The notes below the pieces were generated by a model. The model was not told the origin of the DNA. It made no database searches and saw only the letters and a list, made by a program, of their open reading frames with translations. Below, piece after piece: positions 37,722 through 55,804 of a stretch of DNA of 64,000 bases (positions are counted from its first letter, which is position 1; each line of letters begins with the position of its first letter). The stretch is from Candidatus Avigastranaerophilus sp. (GTDB lineage: Bacteria; Muiribacteriota; Ozemobacteria; Ozemobacterales; Ozemobacteraceae), in the NCBI GenBank assembly GCA_045599645.1, contig JAZRWI010000112.1, positions 4,566 to 68,565 on the forward strand, in the 5' to 3' direction. Both the position numbers and the translations under genes were made by a program.

Positions 37722-38870
37722 TTAAAAATCAAAGCTGTAGTGATGATCCCAGAGGCGGCGCTGAACCATATCAGCATTCAATTTGGTATTGCTAAAAACA
37801 ACAGACCACTGGGTGTTGCTTGTAACAGATTCAGGATTTGGGGCAGATGATGAGGCTTGCAAAGCTTCCCAGGCAACATCCTTGGTAAGATTTTCTTTAT
37901 TCTTTTCCAAAACATCAACAACCTTGTCATAGCGTTCACGACCGTGGCCATAAACCCCGTTTCTCTGGTAAGACTTAACCTGGTCTATATACTTAGCATA
38001 GAAGTTTGTAATAGCATTAATCTTTGTTTCAACCATTTCACGGGTTGGGCTCATGCAATCCCATTCCACAACACGGCTATCACCTGTTGAATCAGCAATA
38101 AAGAAATGATAATCTCTGCCATTTACAGCAAGCATGTCATATTCCTTCAAGATATCAACAGCCTTCTGGGTCGAATCTGCCTTATCAAGAACCAGTCTTA
38201 TAGCCAGTGAAGTAGCAATCTTTTTCTTCCCATTGTTCTGGTTTGTTGGTTCGCTATCGAGGGTTAATACGGCAATAGAAACACCTTTTTCATTAACGCC
38301 GTCATTACAGATATATGGACCAAACAAGCATGCCAGTTTAGTCATAATAGAACTGTCGGCATTGTCTGCCCCAACATTATTCAATGCAGCAAAACCAATT
38401 GACCTATAACCATCTTTGGGGTTGCATCTAACCAGCAAAGCAGAGGTATCAAGCTTAAAATCATAATTTCTGCCAGTAAAAACTTCACCGTTTTTATCAC
38501 GCATGATAAATGCTGTGCAGCCATAATTCGGCAGCTTCAATTCAAATGGGAGATTTGGCAAAGCCTCAGCGGCAACTGCTTTTACAAATGATTCTGTATC
38601 TGTAAAATTTCCGATTATATTATCTGAATTATAATCGTATTTTATTTCCATTTCGTAGACATTATAGTCAGGCTTTGAAGGCTCTAACTTCTTCAAGGTT
38701 TCAATACTGGCCATCCTGCTCTTATAAGCATCACTGGCAAGTATAGCCTGCAGCTTTTCTTCATCAGAAGAATCTGCAGCATAAGACCAATTACATCCAG
38801 CAAAAACAGCAAATCCCAAAACAAGACCCAATAACAATCTATTCTTTCGCATAAACCCCTCCCCCCTCAA
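37722..38870 (-). CDS. Choloylglycine-hydrolase-family (linear amide C-N hydrolase, Ntn/C59) lipoprotein
   Basis: Lipobox FAGC; Ntn nucleophile context GCTAFIMRDKNGEVFTGRNYDF (C-T...GRN.D) typical of the CBAH/PVA family. Confidence 0.65.
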   Translation of the reverse strand: MRGEGFMRKNRLLLGLVLGFAVFAGCNWSYAADSSDEEKLQAILASDAYKSRMASIETLKKLEPSKPDYNVYEMEIKYDYNSDNIIGNFTDTESFVKAVAAEALPNLPFELKLPNYGCTAFIMRDKNGEVFTGRNYDFKLDTSALLVRCNPKDGYRSIGFAALNNVGADNADSSIMTKLACLFGPYICNDGVNEKGVSIAVLTLDSEPTNQNNGKKKIATSLAIRLVLDKADSTQKAVDILKEYDMLAVNGRDYHFFIADSTGDSRVVEWDCMSPTREMVETKINAITNFYAKYIDQVKSYQRNGVYGHGRERYDKVVDVLEKNKENLTKDVAWEALQASSSAPNPESVTSNTQWSVVFSNTKLNADMVQRRLWDHHYSFDF

Positions 38871-38910
38871 GCGTTATAACACAACTACTGCACAAATTTC
38901 AACCACCAAC

Positions 38911-38987
38911 TATGACCTTATTTTCTATGGTTTTATCTATGTGAGCTAGATCTGTTCCTGAAAGAGAAGACAGAGCCACCTCAATAA
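38911..38987 (-). pseudogene. Fragment (~77 bp, ~85% identical) of the XRE-DUF4065 antitoxin gene found intact at 56172-56933
   Basis: Direct alignment of 38911-38987 with 56305-56384; the fragment contains an in-frame stop and cannot encode a protein. Confidence 0.6.
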
Positions 38988-39151
38988 AAGACAATAAGTT
39001 GGATTCACAGCAGATGAAGTAAAAGCATTGAGTCAGCAATCATGATTGAAAATAATAGCTCAATAAATACTGCTTATTTGTCTTGAATAAATGTTAAAAC
39101 AATATTAGAATACGTAAAAGCAGCAATAATGGGTCTTTCTAGGAGGAAAAA

Positions 39152-40303
39152 ATGGATAATAAAATAAAAATATTTGATACAACTTTAAGAGACGGCGAAC
39201 AATCTCCAAAATGCAGCATGACTATAGAAGAAAAAGTAAAAATAGCAAAAAAACTGGAAGAATTGGGAGTAGATATAATTGAAGCAGGTTTTGCAGCATC
39301 TTCAACAAAAGATTTTGAAGCAATACAAGAAATATCTCAAAATGTAGATAAACCAATTATTACTGCATTAGCAAGACTTATAAAAAATGATATAGATAAA
39401 GCAGAAGAATCATTGAAATATGCAAAGAAAAAAAGAATACATGTATTTATCGCAACAAGTGATATTCATATAAAAGATAAACTGCATATGACAAAAGAAG
39501 AAGTAATTAATAGAACAAAAGAAATGGTAAGCTATGCCAAGAGCAAATGTGAAGATATAGAATTTTCTATAGAAGACGCAACAAGAACAAATCCGGAATT
39601 TATGGCACAAGTAATTGCAACAGCAATAAATTGTGGAGCAACTACAATAAATCTTGCAGATACAGTTGGATTTATTACGCCAGAAGAATTTAAAAATTTA
39701 ATAGAATATATAAAAGTAAATGTTCCAAATATAGATAATGTAGCATTAGGTTGTCATTGCCATAATGATTTAAATTTGGCTACTTCTAATTCATTAGCAG
39801 CAATAGAAAGTGGAGTAACACAAGTAGAATGCTGTGTAAATGGAATAGGAGAAAGAGCAGGGATTACAGCTCTTGAACAAATCGTAATGGCACTGCATGT
39901 AAGAAAAGACCATTATAAAAAAGAAACAAATGTGGATATATCAAAATTACTTGAAACAAGTAAATTAGTAGCAGATATAGTAAATGAAAAATTAGAAAGA
40001 ACAAGACCAGTAGTAGGAGAAAACGTAAATATACATTCATCAGGCATGCATCAGGATGGAATATTAAAAAATAAAAATACATATGAAATAATTAATTTTG
40101 AAGAATTAGGTAAAAACAATGAAAAAATACTGATAGATATTCATTCTGGGAAAGCTGCAATTAAATATATTCTAAACAAACACAATATATATCCACAAGA
40201 AGACATAAGCGATTTTGTAACCTGTATAAAAGAGTATTTGAAATCAAATAAAGATATTTCAGAAGAAGAAATATGCAATATGTATAAAAAGCTGAAAATA
40301 TAA
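39152..40303 (+). CDS. LeuA-like DRE-TIM synthase (2-isopropylmalate / citramalate / homocitrate synthase catalytic domain only), strongly AT-rich
   Basis: LRDGEQ, HCHND and GER motifs of the HMGL-like family (FDTTLRDGEQSP, LGCHCHNDLNLATSNSLAAI). Only 383 aa, so it lacks the LeuA C-terminal regulatory domain. K/I/N-rich composition differs from neighbouring genes. Confidence 0.75.
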   Translation: MDNKIKIFDTTLRDGEQSPKCSMTIEEKVKIAKKLEELGVDIIEAGFAASSTKDFEAIQEISQNVDKPIITALARLIKNDIDKAEESLKYAKKKRIHVFIATSDIHIKDKLHMTKEEVINRTKEMVSYAKSKCEDIEFSIEDATRTNPEFMAQVIATAINCGATTINLADTVGFITPEEFKNLIEYIKVNVPNIDNVALGCHCHNDLNLATSNSLAAIESGVTQVECCVNGIGERAGITALEQIVMALHVRKDHYKKETNVDISKLLETSKLVADIVNEKLERTRPVVGENVNIHSSGMHQDGILKNKNTYEIINFEELGKNNEKILIDIHSGKAAIKYILNKHNIYPQEDISDFVTCIKEYLKSNKDISEEEICNMYKKLKI

Positions 40304-40402
40304 TGTGAGCTTCTAGTTGTCTTTGGGGTTATTATGAGAAAACATGGCAACACATTGCAATAGTTGTATTGCAGCAGTTACAAATTTAATGTCACTGTTT
40401 CA

Positions 40403-41665
40403 TTAAATAAATTCGACAGGGACGGCAAATACCTCTGGAGATATAGCAATAGGCTTTGAGCAGTTGCAGATGATTATTCCGGTTTCTATCTGCATATTAT
40501 TGATTCTATTAGTGATATAGAAATTTTTGGCGTCTTCCGAATTTGGGGTAGCTGTTTTCTTTATTTCAATGGGATAAAGAGTATTATTCTGATAAATCAT
40601 CAGGTCTATTTCAACCTTATCTTTGTCTCTGTAAAAATAAATAGGTGCTTCAATCCCCTGGTTGGCAAATGATTTGATTATTTCACTCACTACGTAGGTT
40701 TCAAAAAAAGCTCCGCCCATAGCACCGGTTCTCATAACTTCAGGGCTGGTCCATCTTGTGAGATACGCAGCAAAACCTGTATCCATAAAATACAATTTTG
40801 GTGTCTTTACAATTCGCTTTTCAACATTAATGGAAAAAGGTTTAAGTAAATATACTAATCCTGAAGTAATGAGCAGGGATAACCATTTTTTTGCCGTTAC
40901 TTCACTGATTCCAACTTCTTTACCAAGATCGCCATAGTTTACTAATTGCCCGGTTCTTGAAGCAACGACGGTAATAAATTGCAGGAATTGCATTTCATCA
41001 GTTATTTGGGTAATTTTTCTGATGTCGCGTTCTATATAGGTTTTTAAATAATTTCCATAAAAATCGTTTGTATTTATTTTTCCCTTAACAACTTCTGGAT
41101 AACCTCCAGTAAAAATAGCTTTCCAGGTCTTATTAACGGAAGCTTCCTTACCTGATAAAGCTTTGCTTCTCTGAATAATGTATTTCTTTGATGGAAGAAA
41201 TGGCTTGTCAAATTTATCCTTTCTGATTTCTCTAGCAGATAGCGGATATAACTCTAACATACCTATACGGCCGGCAAGACTCTCTGTTGCTTTTTCCATG
41301 AGATTAAACGGCTGACTTCCGGTAAGGTAATACATTCCATTTTTTCTATTGCCATCTATATTCATTTTCAAGTAGCGGAATAATTCCGGAACGTATTGAA
41401 TTTCATCAAAAACATATGGACAAGGGTGCAATTCTAAGAAAGCCTTAGGATCTGATTTGGCAGATACTTCTTCTAATGGATCATCAAAAGTGAGATATTG
41501 AGCAGGCTTAATAGCCATCAAATTCTGCAAAAGAGTTGTCTTTCCTGTTTGTCTTGCTCCAGTAACAAGACAGGCAGGGAACTCCTTAGATAATCGTTTA
41601 ATAGTTGCCGTTGCATGTCTTTCTATAAATTTCACGAAACACCTCATGGGATAATCCAAAGTCAT
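40403..41665 (-). CDS. DUF4143-family AAA+ ATPase (copy 1)
   Basis: Walker A GARQTGKTT; C-terminal LYPIEIKK motif shared with the paralog at 54452-55675. Confidence 0.75.
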   Translation of the reverse strand: MTLDYPMRCFVKFIERHATATIKRLSKEFPACLVTGARQTGKTTLLQNLMAIKPAQYLTFDDPLEEVSAKSDPKAFLELHPCPYVFDEIQYVPELFRYLKMNIDGNRKNGMYYLTGSQPFNLMEKATESLAGRIGMLELYPLSAREIRKDKFDKPFLPSKKYIIQRSKALSGKEASVNKTWKAIFTGGYPEVVKGKINTNDFYGNYLKTYIERDIRKITQITDEMQFLQFITVVASRTGQLVNYGDLGKEVGISEVTAKKWLSLLITSGLVYLLKPFSINVEKRIVKTPKLYFMDTGFAAYLTRWTSPEVMRTGAMGGAFFETYVVSEIIKSFANQGIEAPIYFYRDKDKVEIDLMIYQNNTLYPIEIKKTATPNSEDAKNFYITNRINNMQIETGIIICNCSKPIAISPEVFAVPVEFI

Positions 41666-41708
41666 AGTTAATATTATCCCACAGCCCAGAAATTAGCAAG
41701 ATTTATTT

Positions 41709-41800
41709 CTACTTGCTTCCAATATACAAAAATACCAGAGCAAGCAATACAAGGAGCAGATCCAGAGCCTTAGACTTCAGGTTCTTTTCATGGAAAATCA
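41709..41800 (-). pseudogene. Orphan duplicate of the 3' end of the eamA gene (about 80% identical to 36753-36845)
   Basis: The ORF fragment ends ...IFHEKNLKSKALDLLLVLLALVFLYIGSK, versus eamA ...IFHEKNLRSKALDLILVLLALVFLYIGSK; the nucleotide alignment extends about 10 bp past the stop. Confidence 0.65.
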
Positions 41801-42243
41801 GAGACAGCCTCCATGCGGGCACTCTAAGCAGAATCGACGGCGGTTGCTGTTTTACCTTTTCTAATGATTTTATTAAATCTGATATAAAAAATCTGACATT
41901 TAATCTTAATAAAAGCAATCCAAATCTTCGCTTCATTGGTCATAACCAGAAAAAGCAACCAGACTTATGGTTTCAAAACTTATAGCCAATTTTGAAAAGA
42001 ACTTAAAACTTATAGAAAACATACCTATGCCGCCCAAGACCCTAGATAAGCAATACAGCCTAATGAGCAAACGAATCAATCACCTTAAAAGTATATATTG
42101 ATTCCATCTGTTTTCAGCTGGTTTTCATTCCAAGGAAAAATTCAAAACGCCCTGCCCTATTTGTCGAACTTAAGTATAACAAAAATACAGATTCCGCCAT
42201 TAGGCAGATTCAAGAAAAGCATATAATTGTCTAATTAAAAAAT

Positions 42244-42338
42244 TTGACCTAAGCCGAACGGCTAAATTATAATATATCTATTAAATTTAAGCCGTTCGCC
42301 TAAATATTGGTATATACAATCAAATTTCGCCGAACGAC
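42244..42338 (+). promoter_or_regulatory. hipBA promoter (TTGACC -18- TATAAT) with three CGAACG/CGTTCG-type operator half-site repeats
   Basis: ttgacc at 42244-49 and tataat at 42268-73. Palindrome agccgaacggct (42252-63) lies in the spacer; related sites gccgttcgcc (42291-300) and gccgaacgac (42329-38). Confidence 0.45.
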
Positions 42339-42364
42339 TAATACTCGGTTTCAGGAGAAATCCC

Positions 42365-42583
42365 ATGAAAATAACTGATGCAACCTCCTTAGGAAACGCC
42401 ATTCGCGCACGAAGAAAAAAACTTAAATATACTCAGGGCTATATTTCCGAAATTACAGGTCTTAGCATAAGTTTTTTATCTGATCTTGAAAACGGGAAAC
42501 AAACTGCTGAAATCGGCAAAACAATCGAAGTAATCAATCTTCTCGGGTTGGATATTTTAGTAGAGGCAAGGGAAGATGAGTAA
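42365..42583 (+). CDS. hipB: HipB-like XRE-family HTH antitoxin
   Basis: 72-aa HTH_XRE protein; 8-nt overlap with the downstream HipA-like gene. Confidence 0.75.
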   Translation: MKITDATSLGNAIRARRKKLKYTQGYISEITGLSISFLSDLENGKQTAEIGKTIEVINLLGLDILVEAREDE

Positions 42584-43868
42584 TATTTCTTTAACGGTTC
42601 AGATTGAAATAAACGGAATGATGACAAAAGTTGGTTCAATTACAGGTACCAGCTATAAAGATGCTGTGTTTGCATACGATGAATCATATACAACTGATAA
42701 AAATCATCGTCCAATCTCCATCAGCCTTCCTTTCTCAAAGCAGGCTTTTACTTCAGATGCAACCAGAAATTATTTTGAGGGACTCTTACCTGAAGGTTTT
42801 ACCCGTAAAAGCATAGCAGAATCCATACATACAGACTTAGATGACTATATTTCAATTTTAAAAGAACTTGGTCGCGAATGTCTTGGTGCTATTCAAATTA
42901 TGGACGAATCCAATCAGACAACAGAAGAGAACTACAAAAAACTTACCCCAAAAGAAGTAAAGGCTTTGGCCGAAGAAGGTGCAAGTCTTGCGGTAAATCT
43001 TGTAATAGAGTCTCATCTCTCGCTTACAGGTGCTTCTGGGAAAACGGGTCTATACTATGATGAAAAAAAGAGGAAATGGTATCAACCGATAGGTTCTGCT
43101 CCTAGTAACTATATTGTAAAACAAAGTCATGTCCGGTTAAGCAACATTGTTGTAAATGAACAACTCTGTCTTCTAACAGCCAAGAAACTTGGAATAGAAA
43201 TACCAGACAGCTTCATCATCCAGACAAGGAAAAATAAAAGTAAAGACGCAGACATCTTATTTGCGACAAAAAGATTTGATAGATATGTTGACCGTGATTC
43301 AAGAGAATTGAACACTTTACCGATTCCTTACAGGCTCCATCAGGAGGATTTTGCACAGGCTCTTGGAATAAATTCTTCTAATAAATACGAAAAAGACGGT
43401 AAGCATTATTTAAAACAGATGTTCAATATCATCCGTTCATATTCCGCAAATCCTATCGAAGACCAATTTAAACTATGGCGAATTACAGTATTCAATTTTC
43501 TTATTGGCAATACTGACAATCACATAAAAAACTATTCACTTCTATATAGTAAAGATTTGCGAACTTTACGGCTTGCACCATGTTATGATGTAGTAAGTAC
43601 CAAAGTTTATAAAAATGATATAAATGAAATGTCTCTTAGTATTAATGAAAAATTAAACATGGATGAAGTTACACGAGCGGACTTTGAACTTGAGGCAAAA
43701 TCAGTTGGCCTTGGTGCTAAGTTTGCCATGAACATTTTTGATGAAGTCCAGAATGGACTGCTGGAAGCATTACAGGCAAGCGTAAGAGAACTGGAAGAAA
43801 AAGGTTTTACTCAAGCAGGTAATATCGCTAATAAAATTGAAAAAAATTTTAAACACAGAAAATCATAA
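42576..43868 (+). CDS. hipA: HipA-family Ser/Thr kinase toxin
   Basis: HipA N- and C-terminal domains; catalytic-loop motif IGNTDNHIKNYSLLY (D-H-KN). Confidence 0.8.
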   Translation: MSNISLTVQIEINGMMTKVGSITGTSYKDAVFAYDESYTTDKNHRPISISLPFSKQAFTSDATRNYFEGLLPEGFTRKSIAESIHTDLDDYISILKELGRECLGAIQIMDESNQTTEENYKKLTPKEVKALAEEGASLAVNLVIESHLSLTGASGKTGLYYDEKKRKWYQPIGSAPSNYIVKQSHVRLSNIVVNEQLCLLTAKKLGIEIPDSFIIQTRKNKSKDADILFATKRFDRYVDRDSRELNTLPIPYRLHQEDFAQALGINSSNKYEKDGKHYLKQMFNIIRSYSANPIEDQFKLWRITVFNFLIGNTDNHIKNYSLLYSKDLRTLRLAPCYDVVSTKVYKNDINEMSLSINEKLNMDEVTRADFELEAKSVGLGAKFAMNIFDEVQNGLLEALQASVRELEEKGFTQAGNIANKIEKNFKHRKS

Positions 43869-43882
43869 AAATGCTACCAGTA

Positions 43883-43934
43883 TAAAATAATGCAATTCTT
43901 TATTCGGCATATTCCCTCACAGAAGTATCTGAAT
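43883..43934. repeat. 52-bp sequence identical to the antitoxin/toxin gene junction at 56154-56205
   Basis: Exact match, base for base. It encodes the last codons of the DUF4065 antitoxin and the first 9 codons (MPNKELHYF) of the toxin, followed by a frame-terminating tail. Confidence 0.8.
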
Positions 43935-43941
43935 GAATGAT

Positions 43942-44331
43942 TTAACTAACATCAGAAACAAGAACATTTGTATCGATTACAGCATAATATGCCATACTAT
44001 TTTGTTTTTTTCTCACCATTTCTATTTCTGCGTTGATTTCTTCCAAGCCCATGTCACTTATGCCATTTTTCGCAGCTAACATGCTTGCAGCTTTCATGGC
44101 CGCCAAACCCTTGTTTCCTTTTTGCTGTAACTGTAATGGAAAAGGAACCCCATTGTCATGAACCAATCGCACAACGCATATACGCATATATGTTGGCAAA
44201 TCCATTCCTAACTGTTCACAAATGCTCATCGCCTTCGCTTTTAAAGAATCATCCATTCGAAATTGAACAAAAGAACTAGGCATATTCACCTCCAAACTAT
44301 ACCTAATATAATTATAACATTTTACAATCAA
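43942..44331 (-). pseudogene. Decayed type II TA locus: RelB/DinJ-like antitoxin fused in frame to the first 16 codons of a PIN-domain (VapC-like) toxin that is then truncated
   Basis: N-terminal FVQFRMDDSLKAKAMSICEQLGMDLPTYMRICVVRLV resembles RelB/DinJ; the C-terminus MAYYAVIDTNVLVSDVS* is a canonical PIN start (IDTNVL) that terminates abruptly beside the 52-bp repeat. Confidence 0.55.
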
Positions 44332-44579
44332 AAGTAATCATTTGATTACATATTTTTTTTAACTCCGTAACTTACAGCAAAATATCTTTAAATTATGCTT
44401 AATTTCAAATTCAGCCACTTTTAAAGAAACGACAATATTACTTTTGTTAAATGTGTCATTAGCATTTCCTGCAGCACATATTGTCTGCTTTCTTGTATCA
44501 TTCAATACTCACCACGGCTTGGTTAATTTATCGTTTATGTCTTGTCGTGAAAGCACTTTTGAAGAAAGTTTCTAAAAAG

Positions 44580-47324
44580 CTATTGCCAACCTTTCAACAA
44601 TTTTGCCAATTTTTCTTGTTTATCAAGAACAACTGCGCATTTATCCCAGTCTTCGGTAACAGGCGGCACAGATTCATATTTTAGAGCAAAAGCATTCTGT
44701 TTTGGTAAAGAATTAATTTTATTGCGCGCCTCAGCTTCGTTGTTTAAAGCAATATCAATCCAAACATCTTCTAGAGTATCTGGTATTTGTCCAAACATAT
44801 TGAATATATCGTTCAAACGACTTGATAACGCTTGATGAACTTTATCTTCTACAGAATCTTTATATCTCATGTTAAATATTCTTATAGTATTACTTAATTG
44901 CCCTATTCTCTGAATACGACCTTTTCTCTGTTCCAATCTTGTAGGATTCCAAGGTAAGTCCAAATTTATCAAAGTTGATAAAGTTTGTAGGTTTAAACCT
45001 TCACTTGCAGCATCAGTACCAACAAGTATTTTTATTTCATGATTTCTTACAGAGTCTTTTAAATCATCTTTTAACTTCTTTTCAAAAATGCCATTTACGA
45101 ACACCCCAGATTTATCGCCACCAGCATATAAACCAACTCTACAATCAGCAATATCTTTTGATAATGTTTCTGCAATATAACGAGCACTATCATAATATTG
45201 CGAGAAAATAATACAACCCCTATCTTTCCATGGCGTATTATCTTCTGTTATACCATTCAACAAAATATCCAATACTTTTGCATACTTTGGATCTTTATCT
45301 TTATTTAAGCTTAATACTTTTACTAAGTCCTCAAGACATTCAATTTCATCCGGAGTCAAGTTCTTGATTTCGCTTTGTTCTTCGTCTGTTTCATCATCTT
45401 CAAATTCAGTATCAAATTCATCCAAAAGAATTTGCCTACCTTCTTCTGTCCAGGCTAGCATTTTTTTGGCTGTGTTTTCTCCAGCAAGAATAGTACTACC
45501 AATACGTCTAAGCATAAGAGTAGACATAAATCCACCAGCCTTAACTCTTTTGGACAATAACTTACAAAACTCTTCTGCTTTTTCGTAACCTTGTCGGCAA
45601 TAACCTTCCAAAGCAATGGCATCGTCATTGTTTTCACCGAATAATTTAACTTCAATTTTTTGTAAATAAGGTAAACCAGTCTTAGGATTAATGCTATTTT
45701 CCAAAAATTCTCTAGTTCGTCTTACAATATGTCTTATATAGGGATTATATTTTTTTACAAATTCATCTGTTATATACAAATCCCTTAGTGAATTCCGGAT
45801 AGACATTCTGCAATCATTGAATAATGCAGCAGGTAAGACAAAATCATTATCACTTAAATCCAATTTATCACGCAAAGTTTTTATCTTAAATGATGTCTGG
45901 GTTTTATCTGGAAATGGATTTCTCATAATGTCCCACATCGTGACTTCACTTTCGGGAACAGGCTCTTTGCCACACACAATATCCAACATATGTTGGGGTT
46001 TTGTATTCCATTCGCTGTAAATATCTCCAAATACTTTCTCATTAGGCAATGCCAATGCGTGTAACAAGTCATAAGCCTCAATGGTATTTACTTGCACAGG
46101 CGTAGCTGTGGCAAGAAGCATACTCTTAGTTTTCATGCTTATTTCATTTAAAAAACGTAATAAGAAATTGCAATCCGCTTTATGATTATCAGGATCGCTG
46201 CTAGGATTTCTCCTTCTGGCCCTATGGCTTTCATCACATATAACACATTCATATTCTTGTTGTAGAAGTAAAGCAGATGCTTCTGTTCTACGTGCAACCA
46301 GACCTTGCGATACAATGCCTATTCTTCTAGGACATCTATGAATTGACTTTATTGATTCTGCCGGATAAAAATAACCTGATTCGTCTTGCCAACCTCTACC
46401 AGTCCAAACAGCACTTGGCATATCTAACAAATTTTTCATTTCATCCTGCCATTGAAAAACCAGAGTTTTTGGTACAATTATTAAAATTGGTTTTTCTCCA
46501 TATACGGCCATTAACTTTGCCGACATAGCAAGTTGAATAGTTTTACCAAGACCTACCTGGTCCGCCAACAAAAATCTAGCTCCACCTTCTTTTTGATGTT
46601 CTTTGAATGCAAGCTCTACAAAATATTTCTGATGATCCCAAAGTCCGAATTCTTTTCGAAAAACAGGTTCTTCAACAGCAATGGCAGGTATCTCAACCTC
46701 TTTTTCATTACGCCACTTTTCAAGGGGTATTATTACTCTTCTGGAAATTCTATCAATATCATCAATAATAGAATCGCTTAATGGTTTAGCATATTTATTA
46801 TTCCAAAAGAAATCAAATTCGTCTTGAACCCAGTTTATAGCCTCAATTGAGTCATCTTCCCATATCATTTCATAATTCAGTTTAAAAGCACTTTTTGTTT
46901 CGTTTATACTACCAATAAAACAGGTTTTAGAATCATCCTTGTATGTTATTATCCCAGCTTTTCCGTGCATTAAGCCATATATTTCGTCAGGTATTACTCT
47001 TATTTGCATTTTACCGCTTTTCAACAAACGATATAAACGAGCAAGTCTTTGAGAACTTTGTGGTGTCGAATATTCTTCTTCTGGTTTAAATCCACACCAT
47101 TCCTGTTTTATTCGCTGAGCCACTTCAATATCTTCTTTTGCCAAGCCGGAATTACATATTATGCGAATATTACCTTCTATAGACTCAATGCTTTCTCCTG
47201 CTACTTCCAATATTGAAGAACAGAAGTAACCAGCAATTCTATCGTATTTTTTGGCACCAACTAATTTTTTATTTAGAAAAGCCTCATCTAGCTTTTGTAA
47301 TCTTGATGAATAACGTTTAATCAC
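44580..47324 (-). CDS. PLD-family nuclease domain fused to SNF2/DEAD-like helicase (defence-operon gene 4)
   Basis: N-terminal HxK(x4)D-GSxN motif LMHGKAGIITYKDDSKTCFIGSINETKSAF; helicase motif I LADQVGLGKTIQ, motif II DESHRARR, helicase-C region LVGTDAASEGLNLQ and QRKGRIQRIGQ. Confidence 0.8.
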   Translation of the reverse strand: MIKRYSSRLQKLDEAFLNKKLVGAKKYDRIAGYFCSSILEVAGESIESIEGNIRIICNSGLAKEDIEVAQRIKQEWCGFKPEEEYSTPQSSQRLARLYRLLKSGKMQIRVIPDEIYGLMHGKAGIITYKDDSKTCFIGSINETKSAFKLNYEMIWEDDSIEAINWVQDEFDFFWNNKYAKPLSDSIIDDIDRISRRVIIPLEKWRNEKEVEIPAIAVEEPVFRKEFGLWDHQKYFVELAFKEHQKEGGARFLLADQVGLGKTIQLAMSAKLMAVYGEKPILIIVPKTLVFQWQDEMKNLLDMPSAVWTGRGWQDESGYFYPAESIKSIHRCPRRIGIVSQGLVARRTEASALLLQQEYECVICDESHRARRRNPSSDPDNHKADCNFLLRFLNEISMKTKSMLLATATPVQVNTIEAYDLLHALALPNEKVFGDIYSEWNTKPQHMLDIVCGKEPVPESEVTMWDIMRNPFPDKTQTSFKIKTLRDKLDLSDNDFVLPAALFNDCRMSIRNSLRDLYITDEFVKKYNPYIRHIVRRTREFLENSINPKTGLPYLQKIEVKLFGENNDDAIALEGYCRQGYEKAEEFCKLLSKRVKAGGFMSTLMLRRIGSTILAGENTAKKMLAWTEEGRQILLDEFDTEFEDDETDEEQSEIKNLTPDEIECLEDLVKVLSLNKDKDPKYAKVLDILLNGITEDNTPWKDRGCIIFSQYYDSARYIAETLSKDIADCRVGLYAGGDKSGVFVNGIFEKKLKDDLKDSVRNHEIKILVGTDAASEGLNLQTLSTLINLDLPWNPTRLEQRKGRIQRIGQLSNTIRIFNMRYKDSVEDKVHQALSSRLNDIFNMFGQIPDTLEDVWIDIALNNEAEARNKINSLPKQNAFALKYESVPPVTEDWDKCAVVLDKQEKLAKLLKGWQ

Positions 47325-47343
47325 AACTAACCTCCAATAATTC

Positions 47344-50238
47344 TTATATACTATCGTGAGTTACCATAGACAGCAGCATTTCTGCCATTTCACCGCATTC
47401 TGCCCAATGTGACTTCATATTATCAATGTCTTTTACGTCACAAAGGAAAGCCAAAATCTGCTTTATCATTTCTCGCTTTTCCCAATAGCTTAAACCTATT
47501 TCGCTTTTTATATAATTCAATGCTGTAGCAGGTTTATTATCGTCTTTTATACCAGCATAAATGCCTGCAAAAACAATTCTTGTTATTGATTTTTCAAAAT
47601 CAGGTATTTCATTTATTGTTCTGGCACCTAATTCATAAGGAGTCTTCAACCTAGCAGTATTTGCCTTTTCGCTAGCCATTAACTGAGAATAGCCACCGAT
47701 AGAAAAACCACGTGCAAATTCCTGATAAGTACTTATTTGGTAATCGCCATGCTTTTCTGATTCCAAACCTTTAATATAGAATTTTTCAGAATTTGTTAGT
47801 TCCTTCCAAAGTAAACTTTCAAAATTTATAGGAATAACACAGTCATAAGCAATTTTCTTTGCATTTTCAATAATGGAAACAATCTTACTTCCAGCTGGAT
47901 TCTTTATAGCCTGATTTAATTCAAAATCCAAATCAAGGTCTTCTATTGAAGAATAAGAAGTCAAAACTTTTAAAGAAGCCGCATAAGCAGCCAATACATA
48001 ATCTGGGTCAGAAAAATTGGGTTCTTCTTTATCATCTAATTTCTGCATGCTATCAATTTGATTCTTTACTTCCGACCTTATATCAGCATTTATTTCATCC
48101 AAGAAAGCACAATCACTACCTGTCTGTTTTCTTAATACAAGCAATACAGTGCCTTTTACATAATTGCCTTTTTTAAGACCCGAAGCATCTGTTTCCGTTG
48201 CTATATTCCATGCTGCAGTAACCTTTAAACCTGCTTTCCACATTATAACCGCTAATTGTGCCCAAACGGCAGGGTCACTATGAGTAAACATAACAACTTG
48301 CATACCGTCATCAGGCATGTGTTTTGCAAGATTAGAATAAATTTCAATCATTGCATGAGAAAAATTATCATCACCTTTTATTGCCAAAATTCTCTTGCTA
48401 TCAGTATACCATTCCGGGAAAGCCTTTTTTAGTAATTCTTTGTCCCAAGCTAGAAAATATTCAGACAATTCATGATAATTAACTGCATCTGCATAAGGTG
48501 GATCCGTAACCCAAAAATCGCAATTATTATCTATATTTCTTGCATCAATTAGTTCTACCTCGCTAAATTTATTAGTATTATAACAATTTACTGACCAATT
48601 CCAAACTTCCCTTAGCATATAAAAACTACGCTCACCCCAATTAACCATGGGATTTAAAGCTTGATTGTAAAAAGTATTTGTCGAAATATCAACTGATGCA
48701 GCCCAGCTGCAGAGCTTTGAAGCAAAATCAGAACATTTATTTAAACCAAGTGCCCCAACTACAATAAACTTGGGGTCATCTGAATTTAAAATATATTTAT
48801 TTAATAAGCTTAAATAAAGCAAATGTCTTGCCCCAAACAATTGATGCCAATACTTCCAACCTCGTTCTCTGATAATCTGATCTGTATTATAACCACTTTC
48901 AATGCAAGAACTTGGAATGAGACCATCAAATTGCCAATCCTTCAAATTATCAGCAACAATACTCCTTATTTTTTCCTCATTCCTCAAATCAAATTCATCT
49001 GGTTTTTTATAATATCTACTTTTATCGTTTCGTAAATATCTTATCGCGTATAACCGTTCAGTGAATACATCATCATTCGAATAACAATATTCTTTTTGAT
49101 CTAGTTTTCTAATACCACTAATTATCTGACCATTTTCGTCCCACTTATCACCACGAATTTTATTAATGGGTGTCGTTTTTCCACAATTTGGACAAAATAC
49201 AATACCTTTGAAAAAGGTATGATTGTTCTCTGCTTTTTTAAAAGCCATTTCACTCACATTGGACAAAATTTCAATATCAAAACAATTTTTATTCTCATTC
49301 TTTTTCAATTCAAGAACAACTCTACCTGCTCTTTTACCTACCACAAAAGAAGATAATAACGGTATCTTTACTCCACATTCGGGGCAAATTGTTTCATTAC
49401 AAAATAAATAGCCTAAAGCTTGATGACCTTCATTACTTAAATCTATTCCCAACTCTTTTATATCTTTTTCAACTTTTGAATAAATATCATTTTGAAAATA
49501 ATGTATTTTATCTAATTCTTTATTAGAAACACCACATACATTTATGCTAGCCCAAGTAAGTAAACCTGCTATAGGATTTAAATCACTAGCCAAAGATTGA
49601 CACCCAATTCTCGCAGCTTCAAAAGGTATTGAGCCACCACCACAAAAACAATCACCAACTTTTACAGTATGACCAAATCTTTTTATAGATAATTCTTCAA
49701 CTAATTCGGGCAATGAATGTGCGCTAGTATGCAAATGTTGGTTAACTTCGTTCCAGGTTTGTTCACTTAAATTGTTGAGATGTTCAGGCCTCATGCACAT
49801 TGCTAACTTATCATCTATAGATAATGTTTCAAAGCAACTCTTTTCTATGTCTGTTCTTGGTGAATCTTTTTCTAATTTAACCTTACCTTTTTCATCAACC
49901 TTAAAAAACTTAAGATATTGATTAGACAACTTTTTATTGCTACGAACTATTTCATAAAGCTCTTTGAGAGTAAAATTCTTTTCCTTACGTAGCCAAAGTC
50001 CTTCTTTATCCATTGAAAGCAACTTTTGAAAGATTTCCATATCTTTCTTTGGATTATCAGAAGAAGGCATTAAGCAACCTAATATTGCGGCTCTTACCAG
50101 AATAAGAGGCTTTCTTCCCCACCAACGTCCCATTCCTGTTAATGTTTGACTTTGAACAGCTTTTCTTTCTTTATAGCTTTCTTTGCTTATTTTACTCACT
50201 GGAAATTGTTTTTCTATGAATGATATCTGATTATTCAT
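47344..50238 (-). CDS. DUF1156-type N6-adenine DNA methyltransferase (PglX-like; defence-operon gene 3)
   Basis: 964 aa; SAM motif I FCGGGSIPFEAARIG; catalytic motif IV DPPY (WVTDPPYADAVNY); N-terminus typical of DUF1156 proteins (QTLTGMGRWWGRKP). Confidence 0.75.
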   Translation of the reverse strand: MNNQISFIEKQFPVSKISKESYKERKAVQSQTLTGMGRWWGRKPLILVRAAILGCLMPSSDNPKKDMEIFQKLLSMDKEGLWLRKEKNFTLKELYEIVRSNKKLSNQYLKFFKVDEKGKVKLEKDSPRTDIEKSCFETLSIDDKLAMCMRPEHLNNLSEQTWNEVNQHLHTSAHSLPELVEELSIKRFGHTVKVGDCFCGGGSIPFEAARIGCQSLASDLNPIAGLLTWASINVCGVSNKELDKIHYFQNDIYSKVEKDIKELGIDLSNEGHQALGYLFCNETICPECGVKIPLLSSFVVGKRAGRVVLELKKNENKNCFDIEILSNVSEMAFKKAENNHTFFKGIVFCPNCGKTTPINKIRGDKWDENGQIISGIRKLDQKEYCYSNDDVFTERLYAIRYLRNDKSRYYKKPDEFDLRNEEKIRSIVADNLKDWQFDGLIPSSCIESGYNTDQIIRERGWKYWHQLFGARHLLYLSLLNKYILNSDDPKFIVVGALGLNKCSDFASKLCSWAASVDISTNTFYNQALNPMVNWGERSFYMLREVWNWSVNCYNTNKFSEVELIDARNIDNNCDFWVTDPPYADAVNYHELSEYFLAWDKELLKKAFPEWYTDSKRILAIKGDDNFSHAMIEIYSNLAKHMPDDGMQVVMFTHSDPAVWAQLAVIMWKAGLKVTAAWNIATETDASGLKKGNYVKGTVLLVLRKQTGSDCAFLDEINADIRSEVKNQIDSMQKLDDKEEPNFSDPDYVLAAYAASLKVLTSYSSIEDLDLDFELNQAIKNPAGSKIVSIIENAKKIAYDCVIPINFESLLWKELTNSEKFYIKGLESEKHGDYQISTYQEFARGFSIGGYSQLMASEKANTARLKTPYELGARTINEIPDFEKSITRIVFAGIYAGIKDDNKPATALNYIKSEIGLSYWEKREMIKQILAFLCDVKDIDNMKSHWAECGEMAEMLLSMVTHDSI

Positions 50239-50782
50239 TTTTTTCTTCTCCTAAATAATCCATAAGTAGTTGATTGAACTCGTTGACAGGGTTATCACAA
50301 AGAATAAATTTCAAAGCCATCCGCCAACCTCTTTTGTTGTTGTAAATGTCACCAGTACTGGCATTTGTCATGGTGTAAAGCCACCATCGTTCTTCGGGAG
50401 TTAAACCTAGCCAGTTTCTTATAGCTACTGGTATGCCTGCAACCTCATTATTTTCAATACCCCACAAAAGAATCATCAATTCTTTTCCCATTAATTTCTC
50501 TACAGGGGTTCCACCAACAACAAATTTACCAACAAGCTTCTTTTCTGCTTTCAGCCTGCTATTAAACTCAGCAGTAACATTCTTTACAACCTTTACCCAT
50601 CTTGAATAAGTTATTTTAAGCTTAAGAACATCTTTTTGTTCACTTATTTGTTGTTCACCTTCATGCTCCCAATGAAACCTTTCATAAATTTCAATATCTT
50701 TGCGCCCACCAGGATTAACAACATAAAAATGGTTTTCTGTTTCAGAAGGGTTAAAACCAAATCCAATGAATTCCTTTTTCAT
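50231..50782 (-). CDS. DUF3780-like small protein (defence-operon gene 2)
   Basis: 183 aa; overlaps both neighbours by 4-8 nt (translational coupling). Family call rests on size, position and recollection of the DUF499-DUF3780-DUF1156 gene neighbourhood. Confidence 0.5.
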   Translation of the reverse strand: MKKEFIGFGFNPSETENHFYVVNPGGRKDIEIYERFHWEHEGEQQISEQKDVLKLKITYSRWVKVVKNVTAEFNSRLKAEKKLVGKFVVGGTPVEKLMGKELMILLWGIENNEVAGIPVAIRNWLGLTPEERWWLYTMTNASTGDIYNNKRGWRMALKFILCDNPVNEFNQLLMDYLGEEKNE

Positions 50783-53700
50783 TGGATAATTTCTCCGTTC
50801 TTTTTCAGATTATCAAGATCAACCTTACTTAACTCTACCCAGTCATTAAAATTCTGACCTGTTCTGAAAATCAACTCTTTGTATTCAAAAGTTACGGTTG
50901 TATCTTTGCCTTCAAGGCTTGTTTCCCTGATTTTATCTATTAATTGCTGCAATATAATTGGTTTATATGCTACATTAGCGGCACATTCAACATAGGCAGC
51001 TTCATCCTGCTTATCATAAACATATATAGTAGTATTCTTAATTTGTAAACCGTCTATCTTACTGAGCAATTCTAATTCTTTATAGCTTGTTTCCGTATCC
51101 GATAACTGTTTCTTGCTTTTCATTTTGTAAACGAGTGTTTTGTTTACATCAACAGAAAAAACGGCTTCAGCGTCTTCGTTAGTTATCTCAATATCTCTAG
51201 CATCAATTACTTGGCCTTTAAACAAAGTAACAGTTCTTACATATTTACAGTCTTTGGGTAGAACTATTTCCCCATTATACAAGCCGCCATTTTCTTTGGG
51301 TTCACTCCCGTCGGTTGTATATCTAATTTCATAGTTATCATTAGCTTGTAATGTCAATACTCTGCCATTAGGCGTGGTTCTTTGTTCATATTTTGTTGGC
51401 GCCTTACATACAAACTCAACAACACGTCCGGTTTTTCTTTCTTTGTTCGGGTCGATGCACACAAAGTTTGCACAAGGTTCCTTTGTGACAAAAACACTGT
51501 CATTCAATTCTGTAGATGCTTCGGTTGGGTCAGCACCAACATCATAGTAAACACGGCCGCCAACACCTTTTACACGCAAAGTGAATTCCTGAGTCTTTTC
51601 ATCATAATATGTCTGCGTAACAGAAACACTGGTTGGTTCTTTTTCAAAAGGCCCCTTTACCAAATATCCACTGATTTCTCTCCATTTGTCCTTTTTAATA
51701 CAATCAGCACGCAAACTATCTAACTGATCAGGATGATACCATTGCCAAGAGGTTTCTGTTGCAGCTCTATCACAAATCTGTGAATAGGTCATTTCTTTTG
51801 TAGTAAAAAGACGTGCTTCACATTTCTTACGCATGGTTTCCAGGAAATTGTCATCCTTAGAAAATTCTTCGTATTTCATGTTGCTTTTTAAGAGTTTAAT
51901 AATCTGGTCTTCGCCATCAAATTTATTATCTTTAAACTCTAATTTAAAATCAGCTGAGGTAATCCCATTCTTGGTGGGATAATATAAGCTGACAAATGTT
52001 TCACGTATTGTTGAAAATAAGGCCTGTGTCGCTTTGTCTACCTGAGCTTCAGCTTCTTTATATTGCTGGTCCAGTGCTGAAATTCCTTCGCTTTTCATTG
52101 TTTCAATAATAGTTTTTATTGCCTTTAGCTTTTTACTATTAATGAAAAGCTTTTCCATTACACTTCGTTCCCCCGACAAGAACATTACTCTGTTTTTCTG
52201 TGACTTTCCGTTATAGAATTCCATCAATTCAGGATGTAATTTATTGCCAGGATATGGCTCGTAGATTACCAAAGATATTTTTTTATTATCTAAATTTATT
52301 TCATCAATTGCAGGCAAAACATATAACTGTTCATAGCATGTTTTTAATTTTGGACTGAAATTTTCACTCAAAATACCCTTTAATTCTTTTCTTGCATTAT
52401 CATTAGTATAAGAATCAATCAAGGTATTCATTTCTGCCACCATGTTTTTGGTGTTCTGAAAATACAAACGACCTCTATTATCTGTCTTGATATACCAACA
52501 AAGTGACTTTAATTCTTCTAAGCAACTCTTTACACTATCAATATCTACATCTGGAGCACTCATAAAGCCCAAAACTTCTGGTTCGGTTAAACCTAACAAT
52601 GCGTGATGTACTGTAGAAAGCGAAGAGACAAGAAGTAGTTTTGCTACTTGTTGCGCATTTTCACCTTTTTCTGGTCTATCGTAGTCAATCAATTCTGCAA
52701 CAGATTTCTTTGATTGAGAAATGTCATGGCTTATTGCTTCTTCCAATTCAGGTTTTATCTGCCTAAATATGGACATCATGTTTGGATTGTTAAGGTCGAC
52801 ATCGAAAACATTTATTAAATAAGATGTGTCTGCTTTTTTGCTTTCAAAAAACTGACGGACAATCTGGCGCATCAGTTTAATAAGACCACGTGTCTGTTGA
52901 AAATTCTGATTTTCTTTAAATCTTGCATATAACTCTTTTATAGAAGGGTGAAACGGGTATGAATCAATAATACCTTTATAAACTGCTTCACCTGTATATG
53001 ACGTAAAGCCTAGATTTTTAGATTTGGATACAGCTTCTTTAAAAGCAATTGCGATTTCATTTTTTTGCCCTGAATAATCAACAGGTATCGGATCGTCTTT
53101 AAATAAACGCTTACGTAAAATAGAATAAACTTCATCACTGTTTAGGGCAACAGGTGCTATTTCTAAGGCTACACGATTGGCTTCTCCTTCCAATTCTTTA
53201 AAGCTGGATTGAAGGAGTTCACTACCAGATTCATAAGCAGCCCTTAAATCAGAAAATACTAAACAAACGTTAGATAACTGCGCTTTGCCTAATGCACTGA
53301 ATAAATTAGCTAGGGCAGTCATTGTAACCTTGCTTAAATCAGAATTACCAATGGTAATTGAACGGGCATTTTCCAAGTAAGGTGGTAATTCGTCAAACAA
53401 AAGCAGAATTTTATCATTCTGTAATAAATTAATCCAAGACTTTTCACCAGGTGCTCTTAGTGGTGAATAATATTCACTAAACAATTCTTTTTTGCCGAGT
53501 TGTTCTGCTATACTACCCCAAATACCATATTCAGCATTTTCCCTTCCCGAGAAAGTTATAACCTTTATTTTTCCAATATCTTTGTATTTGGGCCCAAGTA
53601 TCTTTGTTCTTAATTCAACGTTTTCAGCCAACAAAGCCAATGCCAACATACTATGAGTTTTACCACCACCCATAGCCTGAGTTAATTTTATTACCCCAGT

Positions 53701-53895
53701 ATCTGATTCGCCTAAAAAACGTTTAAACGCAGTATCAAACAACATACCCATACCCTGAGTCTTATAGTTTTCAGAAAAGAATTTTTCAGCGTCAATTCTA
53801 CCTTCGCCATAGTCTGAAAGATTTAAAGTATCTTCTCTTGTTGTATCTTGGAAAACAGATTCACGGGGTTTAAGCATCTGAGCAATGGCTTTCAT
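50779..53895 (-). CDS. DUF499-family AAA+ ATPase (BrxC/PglY-like; defence-operon gene 1)
   Basis: 1038 aa; Walker A LTQAMGGGKTHSMLALALLA; Walker B LLLFDELPPYL; a large alpha-helical C-terminal region typical of BrxC/PglY-like proteins. Confidence 0.7.
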   Translation of the reverse strand: MKAIAQMLKPRESVFQDTTREDTLNLSDYGEGRIDAEKFFSENYKTQGMGMLFDTAFKRFLGESDTGVIKLTQAMGGGKTHSMLALALLAENVELRTKILGPKYKDIGKIKVITFSGRENAEYGIWGSIAEQLGKKELFSEYYSPLRAPGEKSWINLLQNDKILLLFDELPPYLENARSITIGNSDLSKVTMTALANLFSALGKAQLSNVCLVFSDLRAAYESGSELLQSSFKELEGEANRVALEIAPVALNSDEVYSILRKRLFKDDPIPVDYSGQKNEIAIAFKEAVSKSKNLGFTSYTGEAVYKGIIDSYPFHPSIKELYARFKENQNFQQTRGLIKLMRQIVRQFFESKKADTSYLINVFDVDLNNPNMMSIFRQIKPELEEAISHDISQSKKSVAELIDYDRPEKGENAQQVAKLLLVSSLSTVHHALLGLTEPEVLGFMSAPDVDIDSVKSCLEELKSLCWYIKTDNRGRLYFQNTKNMVAEMNTLIDSYTNDNARKELKGILSENFSPKLKTCYEQLYVLPAIDEINLDNKKISLVIYEPYPGNKLHPELMEFYNGKSQKNRVMFLSGERSVMEKLFINSKKLKAIKTIIETMKSEGISALDQQYKEAEAQVDKATQALFSTIRETFVSLYYPTKNGITSADFKLEFKDNKFDGEDQIIKLLKSNMKYEEFSKDDNFLETMRKKCEARLFTTKEMTYSQICDRAATETSWQWYHPDQLDSLRADCIKKDKWREISGYLVKGPFEKEPTSVSVTQTYYDEKTQEFTLRVKGVGGRVYYDVGADPTEASTELNDSVFVTKEPCANFVCIDPNKERKTGRVVEFVCKAPTKYEQRTTPNGRVLTLQANDNYEIRYTTDGSEPKENGGLYNGEIVLPKDCKYVRTVTLFKGQVIDARDIEITNEDAEAVFSVDVNKTLVYKMKSKKQLSDTETSYKELELLSKIDGLQIKNTTIYVYDKQDEAAYVECAANVAYKPIILQQLIDKIRETSLEGKDTTVTFEYKELIFRTGQNFNDWVELSKVDLDNLKKNGEIIQ

Positions 53896-53935
53896 AAACT
53901 CAATCCTTTATTTTTAGTTGTATTAGCCAAGCCCA

Positions 53936-53985
53936 TTAACTCAAAAGAGTTAATGAGCTTTATCATCTTAACTCTTTTGAGTTAA
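53936..53985. promoter_or_regulatory. Pair of mutually reverse-complementary 18-bp palindromes (TTAACTCAAAAGAGTTAA / TTAACTCTTTTGAGTTAA) in the divergent promoter between the defence operon and the XRE regulator
   Basis: 53936-53953 and 53968-53985; each is itself near-palindromic, and they are separated by 14 bp. Confidence 0.55.
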
Positions 53986-54037
53986 TTTTTGCAACAAAAA
54001 ATTGCCTATGATGTACCGTACATTGGAGAAAAACAAT

Positions 54038-54280
54038 ATGGACATAGGCGAAGCCGTAAAACTAAGAATACAAGAGCTTTTAGATGAGCGTAAAATTACA
54101 TTGAATCATCTAAGTTATTTATGCGGCATTACTCAATCCACGCTCAACAACATAATAAGCGGAAGAAATAAGGGTACAACCATTACTACAATAAAAAAGA
54201 TATGCGATGGTCTTGATATAACAATTATTCAGTTTTTTGAATCCAAGCTTTTTGAAAAATTAGACCAGGAAATCAAATAA
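54038..54280 (+). CDS. XRE-family HTH transcriptional regulator
   Basis: HTH_XRE signature ITLNHLSYLCGITQSTLNNIISGRNKGTTITTIKKICDGL. ATG at 54038 has a GGAG RBS; the ORF-track start at 54002 is a TTG. Confidence 0.7.
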   Translation: MDIGEAVKLRIQELLDERKITLNHLSYLCGITQSTLNNIISGRNKGTTITTIKKICDGLDITIIQFFESKLFEKLDQEIK

Positions 54281-55675: not shown

Positions 55676-55804
55676 GCCAAGCCGAATCACATTATATCTT
55701 CAATCTGTAAATCAATTTCTGTATATTCCATAAAACCCATTAATCAATTAAGTCTTTAAACAACGTCAGAAGTTTCTAATTTATGCTAATTCCAGCAATT
55801 CTGT

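Follow-up and report, generated by a model that had tools for sequence, protein, structure and literature searches.

We analyzed a gene on the minus strand, at positions 44580 to 47324 of a 64,000-nucleotide stretch of contig JAZRWI010000112.1 from Candidatus Avigastranaerophilus sp. (this whole stretch is called the window below, and positions are numbered within it). The gene encodes a protein of 914 amino acids (aa) which is a real fusion of a phospholipase D (PLD)-type nuclease domain to a Snf2-like motor. We conclude with high confidence that this protein serves a complete MANTIS system, also named Gao_RL or the Type-2 BREX-related (BR) system, as its MtsD-type effector, and that it is an ordinary member of its kind: it stands in the four-gene order of that system, matches the MtsD family model over its full length, and has the N-terminal HKD histidine together with Walker motifs A and B, both intact. 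The architecture, the operon, and the anti-phage role are already known from the literature.

Domains, catalytic motifs, and predicted fold of MtsD

A single uninterrupted open reading frame (ORF) fills the interval exactly on the minus strand, and translation of the plus strand runs into many stops. The ORF opens with a GTG start codon, and a Shine-Dalgarno sequence (GGAGG) lies 7 nt upstream of it; the coordinates of the ORF include the stop codon. We compared the translation with Pfam and found four domains, all of which exceeded their gathering scores: PLDc_2 at aa 24 to 174 (E = 5.9e-13, 49.2 bits versus a cut-off of 27), SNF2-rel_dom at aa 231 to 427 (E = 1.2e-15, 57.9 bits versus a cut-off of 24.9), ResIII at aa 228 to 409 (E = 1.6e-9), and Helicase_C at aa 701 to 808 (E = 1.5e-16, 61 bits versus a cut-off of 23.5). 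A preliminary description of this DNA had placed a PLD domain at the N terminus of an SNF2 helicase, and the PLDc_2, SNF2-rel_dom, and Helicase_C matches bear this out. The SNF2-rel_dom model was covered at its positions 1 to 181 of 290 only, and a long family-specific insert lies at aa ~430 to 700. C-terminal of Helicase_C, the Pfam scan returned no further domain.

Next, we located the catalytic motifs. The segment HGKAGIITYKDDSKTCFIGSINETKSAF spans aa 120 to 147 and holds the core of the nuclease domain, where the HKD motif reads H120-x-K122-x7-D130-x7-G138-S-x-N141, as opposed to the canonical x4/x6 spacing. The motif strings quoted in the preliminary description are all present in the translation; the H-G-K-x4-D spacing that it gave was wrong, the actual HxK-x7-D being the same as in SauUSI. 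Profile alignments showed that the MtsD family and SauUSI have this spacing in common, and that the family has 4 residues inserted here when compared with NucT and Zucchini. In the motor, the Walker A motif GLGKT lies at aa 258 to 262 (window 46539-46553), DESH at aa 364 to 367 (window 46224-46235), TATP at aa 406 to 409 (window 46098-46109), and motif VI, QRKGRIQRIGQ, at aa 799 to 809 (window 44898-44930).

HxK...GSxN occurs once only in the whole chain, and with one HKD motif per chain, an active site would need a dimer. The single-HKD nucleases Nuc/NucT, BfiI, and Zucchini/MitoPLD, which MtsD resembles in this respect, have an active site formed across a dimer, are metal independent, and work through a phosphohistidine intermediate. 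Nuc/NucT and Zucchini/MitoPLD are small stand-alone proteins and BfiI is fused to a DNA-binding domain, whereas MtsD has a hairpin that is 4 residues longer and an ATP-driven motor.

To describe conservation, we aligned 34 family members at 30 to 51% identity. Residues H120, K122, S139, and N141 of the PLD domain were invariant, as were G258, G260, K261, T262, D364, E365, H367, and TATP in the first ATPase lobe and Q799, R800, G802, R803, and R806 in motif VI. Because the Pfam scores lie above gathering and the catalytic residues are invariant at this level of identity, the motifs are no chance match. The computation shows purifying selection on the catalytic residues of MtsD.

The preliminary description had named domain hidden Markov models and structure prediction as ways of checking the fusion, and both came out in its favor. 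MtsD matched the NCBIfam equivalog NF042964 with 1240.6 bits versus a cut-off of 1100 (aa 1 to 913 on model positions 2 to 895 of 895). This model is titled "phospholipase D-like domain-containing anti-phage protein" and assigns its name automatically in NCBI annotation. The PADLOC model PLD_Helicase (PDLC02193) also matched end to end (aa 1 to 913, E = 5.7e-242). PADLOC models of PbeA, from the archaeal phosphorothioate-sensing system DndCDEA-PbeABCD, aligned to aa 3 to 372 (E = 1.7e-34), and this match over the PLD domain and the first ATPase lobe indicates a common PLD-ATPase module. The PbeA models, however, are ~630 to 680 positions long, the match ends in lobe 1, and the partners of PbeA are Dnd and Pbe proteins rather than DUF499, DUF3780, and DUF1156 proteins.

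The family is large. More than 4,000 clusters (90% identity) matched MtsD at E ≤ 1e-10, with identities of 94% for the nearest and 74% for the one after it. A relative with 71% identity, from Enterocloster lavalensis, carries the NCBI family name, and the nearest relatives belong to the Lachnospiraceae and other Clostridia, which by itself would suggest a clostridial host. When the PLD domain alone was the query, 1222 representative proteins matched, 97 of them at E ≤ 1e-30, and the full-length matches were about 860 to 985 aa long, with the domain at the N terminus. Full-length homologs of MtsD were present in 22 plasmid records. The phage collection yielded no full-length homolog, only generic matches to the helicase lobes, and the gene is thus not phage-borne in known records.

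We obtained equivalent results from predicted structures. The AlphaFold2 (AF2) model of the full-length protein (predicted local distance difference test [pLDDT], 75.7) gave a Foldseek list dominated by the helicase, in which the best fold matches in the Protein Data Bank (PDB) were RapA, ZorD, Chd1, and ISWI; the best PDB sequence matches of MtsD were RapA, DDM1, and Ino80. The PLD fold matches emerged from a separate model of aa 1 to 215, which is of moderate confidence (pLDDT, 73.5). Its best Foldseek match was SauUSI (7clg_A, E = 1.3e-5), followed by Zucchini, NucT, vaccinia F13, TrmBL2, and Tdp1, all of them PLD folds (E values of 1e-5 to 1e-2); PssA was also among the structural matches. 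The sequence profile of the same segment matched the PDB entries of NucT (6EHI), SauUSI (7CLG, E = 0.0018), and Zucchini (4GGJ). At the level of such models, these computations show a predicted PLD-nuclease-type fold for the N-terminal domain and a predicted Snf2-type fold for the remainder. HxK(x)nD(x)nGSxN, carried on a PLD-type fold, places MtsD in the nuclease branch of the PLD superfamily, and both lobes, motifs I to VI, and the closest fold place it in the Swi2/Snf2 family of superfamily 2 (SF2) ATPases.

The operon and its relation to known systems

All four genes of the system lie on the minus strand, in the order mtsA (DUF499), mtsB (DUF3780), mtsC (DUF1156), and mtsD (PLD-helicase), mtsD being the last (Table 1). 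The methyltransferase gene that the preliminary description had seen adjoining mtsD is mtsC. Its product has the motifs FCGGG (aa 198) and DPPY (aa 579), separated by a variable target recognition domain (TRD), and matched NCBIfam NF042963 (DUF1156_antiphage, 1229 bits versus a cut-off of 1000) and PADLOC DUF1156_MTase (E = 4.4e-257). MtsB matched DUF3780 in both Pfam (E = 4.2e-44) and PADLOC (E = 7.6e-40). MtsA, with Walker A GGGKT at aa 76 and Walker B LLLFDE at aa 164, matched PADLOC DUF499 over its full length (E = 4.6e-177) and the Pfam families DUF499, Fn3_assoc, and CHB_HEX_C_1, with a fibronectin type III (FnIII)-like insert around aa 844 to 890. The catalytic motifs are intact in all four proteins. 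The start of mtsC overlaps mtsB by 8 nt, the stop of mtsA overlaps mtsB by 4 nt, the 19-nt gap between mtsC and mtsD contains GGAGG, and a Shine-Dalgarno-like sequence precedes each gene. These overlaps, the short gap, and the Shine-Dalgarno-like sequences indicate that the genes form one operon and are translationally coupled.

Table 1. Features of the mtsD gene, its operon, and the adjoining candidate regulatory region, in window positions
Feature	Position	Strand	Evidence
mtsD ortholog, PLD(HKD)-Snf2-like helicase fusion	44580..47324	-	NF042964, PADLOC PLD_Helicase, ORF translation
N-terminal PLD-like nuclease domain, aa 24-174	46803..47255	-	Pfam PLDc_2, profile and fold matches
Single HKD catalytic core, H120-G-K122...D130...G138-S-I-N141	46902..46967	-	Motif positions, invariance
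Snf2-like ATPase lobe 1, aa 231-427	46044..46634	-	Pfam SNF2-rel_dom and ResIII
ATPase lobe 2 (Helicase_C), aa 701-808	44901..45224	-	Pfam Helicase_C
mtsC ortholog, DUF1156 N6-adenine DNA methyltransferase, 964 aa	47344..50238	-	NF042963, PADLOC, motifs
mtsB ortholog, DUF3780 protein, 183 aa	50231..50782	-	Pfam, PADLOC
mtsA ortholog, DUF499 AAA+ ATPase, 1038 aa	50779..53895	-	Pfam DUF499, PADLOC
19-nt palindrome present twice, ATTAACTCAAAAGAGTTAA / TTAACTCTTTTGAGTTAAT, copies 14 nt apart, candidate operator	53935..53986		Repeat search
XRE-type HTH (HTH_26), 80 aa, candidate regulator, divergent from mtsA	54038..54280	+	Pfam HTH_26, E = 1.2e-12

This four-gene system is the Gao_RL / Gao_29 of Gao et al. 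(Science 2020), as cited in the later papers. It is also the Type-2 DUF499-centered BR system of Rakesh and Krishnan (NAR 2026; PMC12839542), which was reported from 1120 taxa and is defined by an N-terminal HKD nuclease and a DUF3780 gene; the HKD-helicase fusion occurs in 921 of these taxa, DUF3780 in 98%, and an FnIII-like beta-sandwich in about 53% of the ATPases (PMC12839542). Our MtsA, with its FnIII-like insert, is like the latter group. Shaw et al., working on Pseudomonas aeruginosa AZPAE15024, gave the system its new name, MANTIS (MtsA-D) (bioRxiv 10.64898/2026.09.23.753747). According to that study, P. aeruginosa MtsC, in which specificity resides, hemimethylates an asymmetric 6-bp site and needs MtsA with ATP as well as MtsB to do so, and restriction needs all four Mts proteins, targets unmethylated DNA, and is best at inverted pairs of sites. 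Furthermore, deletion of MtsD, mutation of its Walker A motif, or the PLD histidine mutant H122A led to loss of phage restriction, and a 2.2 Å cryo-electron microscopy structure showed an MtsD dimer with one shared PLD site, resembling SauUSI 7CLG (bioRxiv 10.64898/2026.09.23.753747).

The protein studied here is like the MANTIS MtsD in its N-terminal single HKD motif followed by a Swi2/Snf2-like SF2 ATPase, in its similar length, and in the same operon order, and its catalytic histidine is at nearly the same position (H120, compared with H122 in P. aeruginosa). Unlike the P. aeruginosa system, ours is of the Clostridia sequence type and has a divergent XRE-type helix-turn-helix (HTH) gene and two palindromes, not the Arc/CopG regulator MtsR. 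The histidine mutant that the preliminary description proposed had already been made in the P. aeruginosa ortholog, where it abolished restriction as predicted. By analogy with that work, its suggestion that a PLD nuclease joined to a translocase would be the effector of the adjacent methyltransferase-marked system is supported and corresponds to the published reading of the family. The pairing of effector and methyltransferase stood; the homologous effector, however, needs MtsA, MtsB, and MtsC, not the methyltransferase alone.

We then looked into how the operon is conserved. Six other loci have the DUF499-DUF3780-DUF1156-PLD-helicase order: they are from two Lachnospiraceae metagenome-assembled genomes (MAGs), a contig with a protein named for Enterocloster lavalensis, metagenome contigs, and the Pseudomonas fluorescens plasmid pG69, a conjugative plasmid on which the Prokaryotic Genome Annotation Pipeline (PGAP) names all four genes and the MtsD homolog is about 910 aa long. 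A single-protein scan of genome contigs gave two of the loci only, both of them the Lachnospiraceae MAGs, and the others came from searches of encoding contigs and plasmids. The identities of all four proteins co-vary across the loci. MtsD is fairly evenly conserved (60 to 74% overall). In MtsC, conservation is lowest at aa ~241 to 560, where the TRD lies between motifs I and IV; in MtsA, it is lowest over the final ~160 aa (aa ~880 to 1038). The MtsA C terminus is also reported as hypervariable in the literature. That the variable blocks are in the MtsC TRD and the MtsA C terminus, and not in MtsD, fits a generic effector which is targeted by MtsC and lacks a recognition module of its own.

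One alternative is that the protein works on its own as a Type IV restriction enzyme like SauUSI, cutting modified DNA independently of its neighbors. SauUSI (Staphylococcus aureus, PDB 7CLG) has, as here, an N-terminal single HKD motif followed by an SF2 ATPase and an extended HxK-x7-D hairpin, and it ranks first among the structural matches of the PLD domain. SauUSI nevertheless has its own C-terminal recognition domain, acts alone, and cuts DNA containing 5-methylcytosine or 5-hydroxymethylcytosine, whereas here the methyltransferase would supply specificity and self-protection. A C-terminal target recognition domain of the SauUSI type was not found in MtsD by the Pfam scan; moreover, at every one of the loci mtsD forms part of the four-gene operon, with translational coupling, and its homolog needs MtsA, MtsB, and MtsC and targets unmethylated DNA. 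We therefore regard an autonomous enzyme of this type as very unlikely.

In DISARM, too, a Snf2 helicase and a PLD protein occur together with an adenine methyltransferase, and MtsD could be imagined as the DrmD Snf2 helicase of that system fused with its PLD nuclease DrmC. DrmD models did match the C-terminal helicase lobe (PADLOC, E = 3.4e-42; NCBIfam, 163 bits), but the 163 bits compare with an equivalog cut-off of 610 and cover aa 630 to 853 only, and it is NF042964 that is satisfied over the full length of MtsD. In addition, the neighboring genes scanned (40.4 to 55.7 kb) were DUF499, DUF3780, DUF1156, toxin-antitoxin, or AAA_14/DUF4143 genes, and DrmA and DrmB were not among them. In DISARM, the Snf2 helicase and the PLD protein are separate and are accompanied by DrmA and DrmB; here, they are fused. 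Membership in DISARM is the least credible of the alternatives, with hardly any probability left to it.

Only slightly more credible is a helicase of the Type-1 BR system (Hma, HmaA-like) or of Type-3 BREX (BrxHII). The helicase core of MtsD matched PADLOC models of HmaA (E = 8.5e-37) and BrxHI/BrxHII (E = 4.8e-40), the neighboring methyltransferase and ATPase matched HmaB and HmaC (PADLOC), and the Hma and BREX systems are evolutionarily related; like Hma, our operon sets a Swi2/Snf2 helicase-nuclease fusion alongside a DUF1156 methyltransferase and a DUF499 ATPase. The HmaA of Halomonas meridiana, however, has a C-terminal PD-(D/E)xK nickase and an N-terminal TUDOR domain, and Hma is without a DUF3780 gene; its anti-phage activity depends on both helicase and nuclease (PMC11232893). 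The matches of MtsD to HmaA and BrxHI/BrxHII are partial and confined to the helicase lobes, its nuclease is an N-terminal HKD domain and not a C-terminal PD-(D/E)xK domain, the operon includes a DUF3780 gene, and neither PglZ nor BrxL had a match among the neighboring genes scanned. On these membership tests, DISARM, the stand-alone SauUSI type, Hma, and BREX type 3 were all rejected.

Proposed mode of action

Transferred from P. aeruginosa, the mechanism of the MANTIS system in the window would begin with MtsA, in its ATP-bound state, loading MtsC at a recognition sequence that is short and asymmetric. Methylation, stimulated by MtsB, would leave host sites with N6-methyladenine on one strand. 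By analogy with the P. aeruginosa and related systems, an asymmetric site of ~6 bp is predicted to be hemimethylated here, and phage or plasmid DNA without the modification to be restricted. At unmodified sites on incoming DNA, MtsABC may recruit or license MtsD. The MtsD homodimer would then build one PLD site from two single-HKD domains (H120, K122, and N141 of both chains), with H120 as the nucleophile equivalent to H122 of P. aeruginosa; the single HKD motif per chain is consistent with such a dimer and shared site. The ATPase motors would drive MtsD along double-stranded DNA until, upon collision with another site-bound MtsABC, the PLD site would cut the two strands sequentially, inverted pairs of sites being the most efficient. 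That MtsD translocates, that collision triggers cutting, and that MtsD itself cleaves DNA we only infer.

Several observations weigh against our assignment and the mechanism attached to it. First, MtsA and MtsB fell short of their NCBIfam models, the former with 721 bits on NF042962, well below the cut-off of 1200, and the latter with 144 bits on NF042961, below the cut-off of 200. Second, the structural evidence is modest in places: both AF2 models are of only moderate confidence (pLDDT, 75.7 for the full length and 73.5 for aa 1 to 215), the Foldseek TM-scores for the PLD domain are 0.36 to 0.48, and SauUSI was outside the top 50 Foldseek matches of the full-length model. Confidence was low (pLDDT < 50) at aa 140 to 152, beside GSxN (window ~46869-46907), and at aa 772 to 810, in helicase motifs V and VI (window ~44895-45011). 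These regions nevertheless contain invariant residues, and the low values likely reflect a shallow alignment of low diversity or the dimer or DNA context missing from the model. Third, MtsD is only about 36 to 38% identical to the proteobacterial homologs of Pseudomonas and Acinetobacter, so that mechanistic details may differ. Finally, when purified P. aeruginosa MtsD was combined with MtsA-C, ATP, AdoMet, and metals, many conditions were tried and DNA was not cleaved, and a stable complex or interaction of MtsD with MtsABC was undetected in that work (bioRxiv 10.64898/2026.09.23.753747).

The absence of cleavage in vitro supports a different mechanism within the same family, in which the HKD domain nicks DNA, forms phosphohistidine-DNA adducts, blocks replication as BREX does, or acts on another phosphodiester substrate. 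The PLD superfamily does have non-nuclease members, and F13, PssA, and TrmBL2 are among the structural matches. On the other hand, the nearest relatives in sequence and structure, NucT, Zucchini, and SauUSI, are of the nuclease branch, the catalytic His, Lys, Ser, and Asn are strictly conserved, H122A abolishes restriction in the homolog, and fusion to a Snf2 motor of the double-stranded DNA type fits a DNA substrate. We judge such a mechanism unlikely, yet we give it more room than the rejected systems because cleavage has not been reconstituted for P. aeruginosa MtsD or any other member of the family.

Candidate regulator and genomic surroundings

An Arc/CopG MtsR gene was not found at the window operon. 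Between mtsA and the divergent HTH gene, both copies of the palindrome are perfect, of the TTAACTCAAAAGAGTTAA type, with arms that are 100% complementary. To judge from their sequences, the HTH gene and the palindromes look like a C-protein-like pair of regulator and operator that may replace MtsR. In related loci, an HTH_26 gene also lies directly upstream of DUF499, but it is co-directional and its product is only 18 to 23% identical to the window HTH, which leaves the regulatory role of the latter a hypothesis. Upstream of DUF499 in two of the related loci (L003 and L004), the inverted-repeat search reported no comparable long inverted repeat. In a promoter and terminator scan of 43.8 to 54.5 kb, the number of sites did not exceed that in shuffled sequence, and no conclusion was drawn from it. 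The wider proposal, that the operon is controlled by an XRE repressor, encoded divergently and acting at the twin palindromes as operators, and restricts by nicking, covalent capture, or replication block, seems improbable to us; in a smaller version, the XRE and twin-palindrome module could be a C-protein-like timing switch, new for MANTIS.

Other potential regulatory and defense genes surround the operon. Directly downstream of mtsD is a RelB-like antitoxin gene (129 aa, 43942-44331, minus strand) for which no toxin partner is obvious, and beyond it is a hipBA-type pair (42365-43868, plus strand) made up of a 72-aa HTH ORF and a 430-aa HipA kinase whose start the former overlaps. On the other side, a 253-aa antitoxin-type protein with HTH_3 and SocA_Panacea (55805-56933, minus strand) overlaps a 125-aa ORF without a Pfam match, and the two may form a toxin-antitoxin pair of the Panacea type, in which the toxin is unclassified. 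AAA_14/DUF4143 ATPases in opposite orientations (40403-41665, minus strand; 54452-55675, plus strand) flank this island of MANTIS and toxin-antitoxin genes; they matched the PADLOC candidate system PDC-S01 (E = 1e-108 and 2.7e-98). We rejected the idea that they are recent repeats marking a mobile element, as these paralogs are only 46% identical.

The GC content is about 0.32 to 0.36 over 38 to 58 kb, compared with 0.38 to 0.42 in the core genes at 26 to 36 kb, and the low GC of the island (~38000-58000) is mildly suggestive of horizontal acquisition. The low-GC stretch is bounded by a homocitrate/isopropylmalate-synthase-like gene and by two pullulanase genes. The latter are tandem paralogs encoding pullulanase-type glycoside hydrolases with PUD, CBM_48, Alpha-amylase, and SpuA_C domains (58548-63967, minus strand), and a 442-aa ORF with no Pfam match (57027-58355, minus strand) sits at the island edge. 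Farther away, a dcw cluster (25124-32155, minus strand) encodes RsmH/MraW, a penicillin-binding protein transpeptidase with PASTA, two Mur ligases, and MraY, and its presence indicates that the window is chromosomal. A 2956-aa ORF with 11 Big_5 bacterial Ig-like domains (14633-23503, minus strand) adjoins a 502-aa CarboxypepD_reg protein and is probably a surface protein or adhesin.

Related loci also have defense genes next to the operon: Wadjet JetABCD and SLFN/AlbA_2 in L003 (13120-21281), an SMC-like ATPase and GmrSD_N in L004 (1-3111), and SIR2_2 and DUF87 in L008 (9905-12893). Such neighbors fit residence of MANTIS operons in defense islands.

As a discovery, the locus carries little weight, the system having been published in 2020 and 2026 and being named automatically by NCBI models. 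It is an intact, compact MANTIS of the Clostridia type that has kept all its catalytic motifs and lies in a small chromosomal defense island. As such, it could serve as an alternative ortholog for reconstituting DNA cleavage by MtsD in vitro, and it could help to ask whether regulation of the XRE HTH type replaces MtsR.

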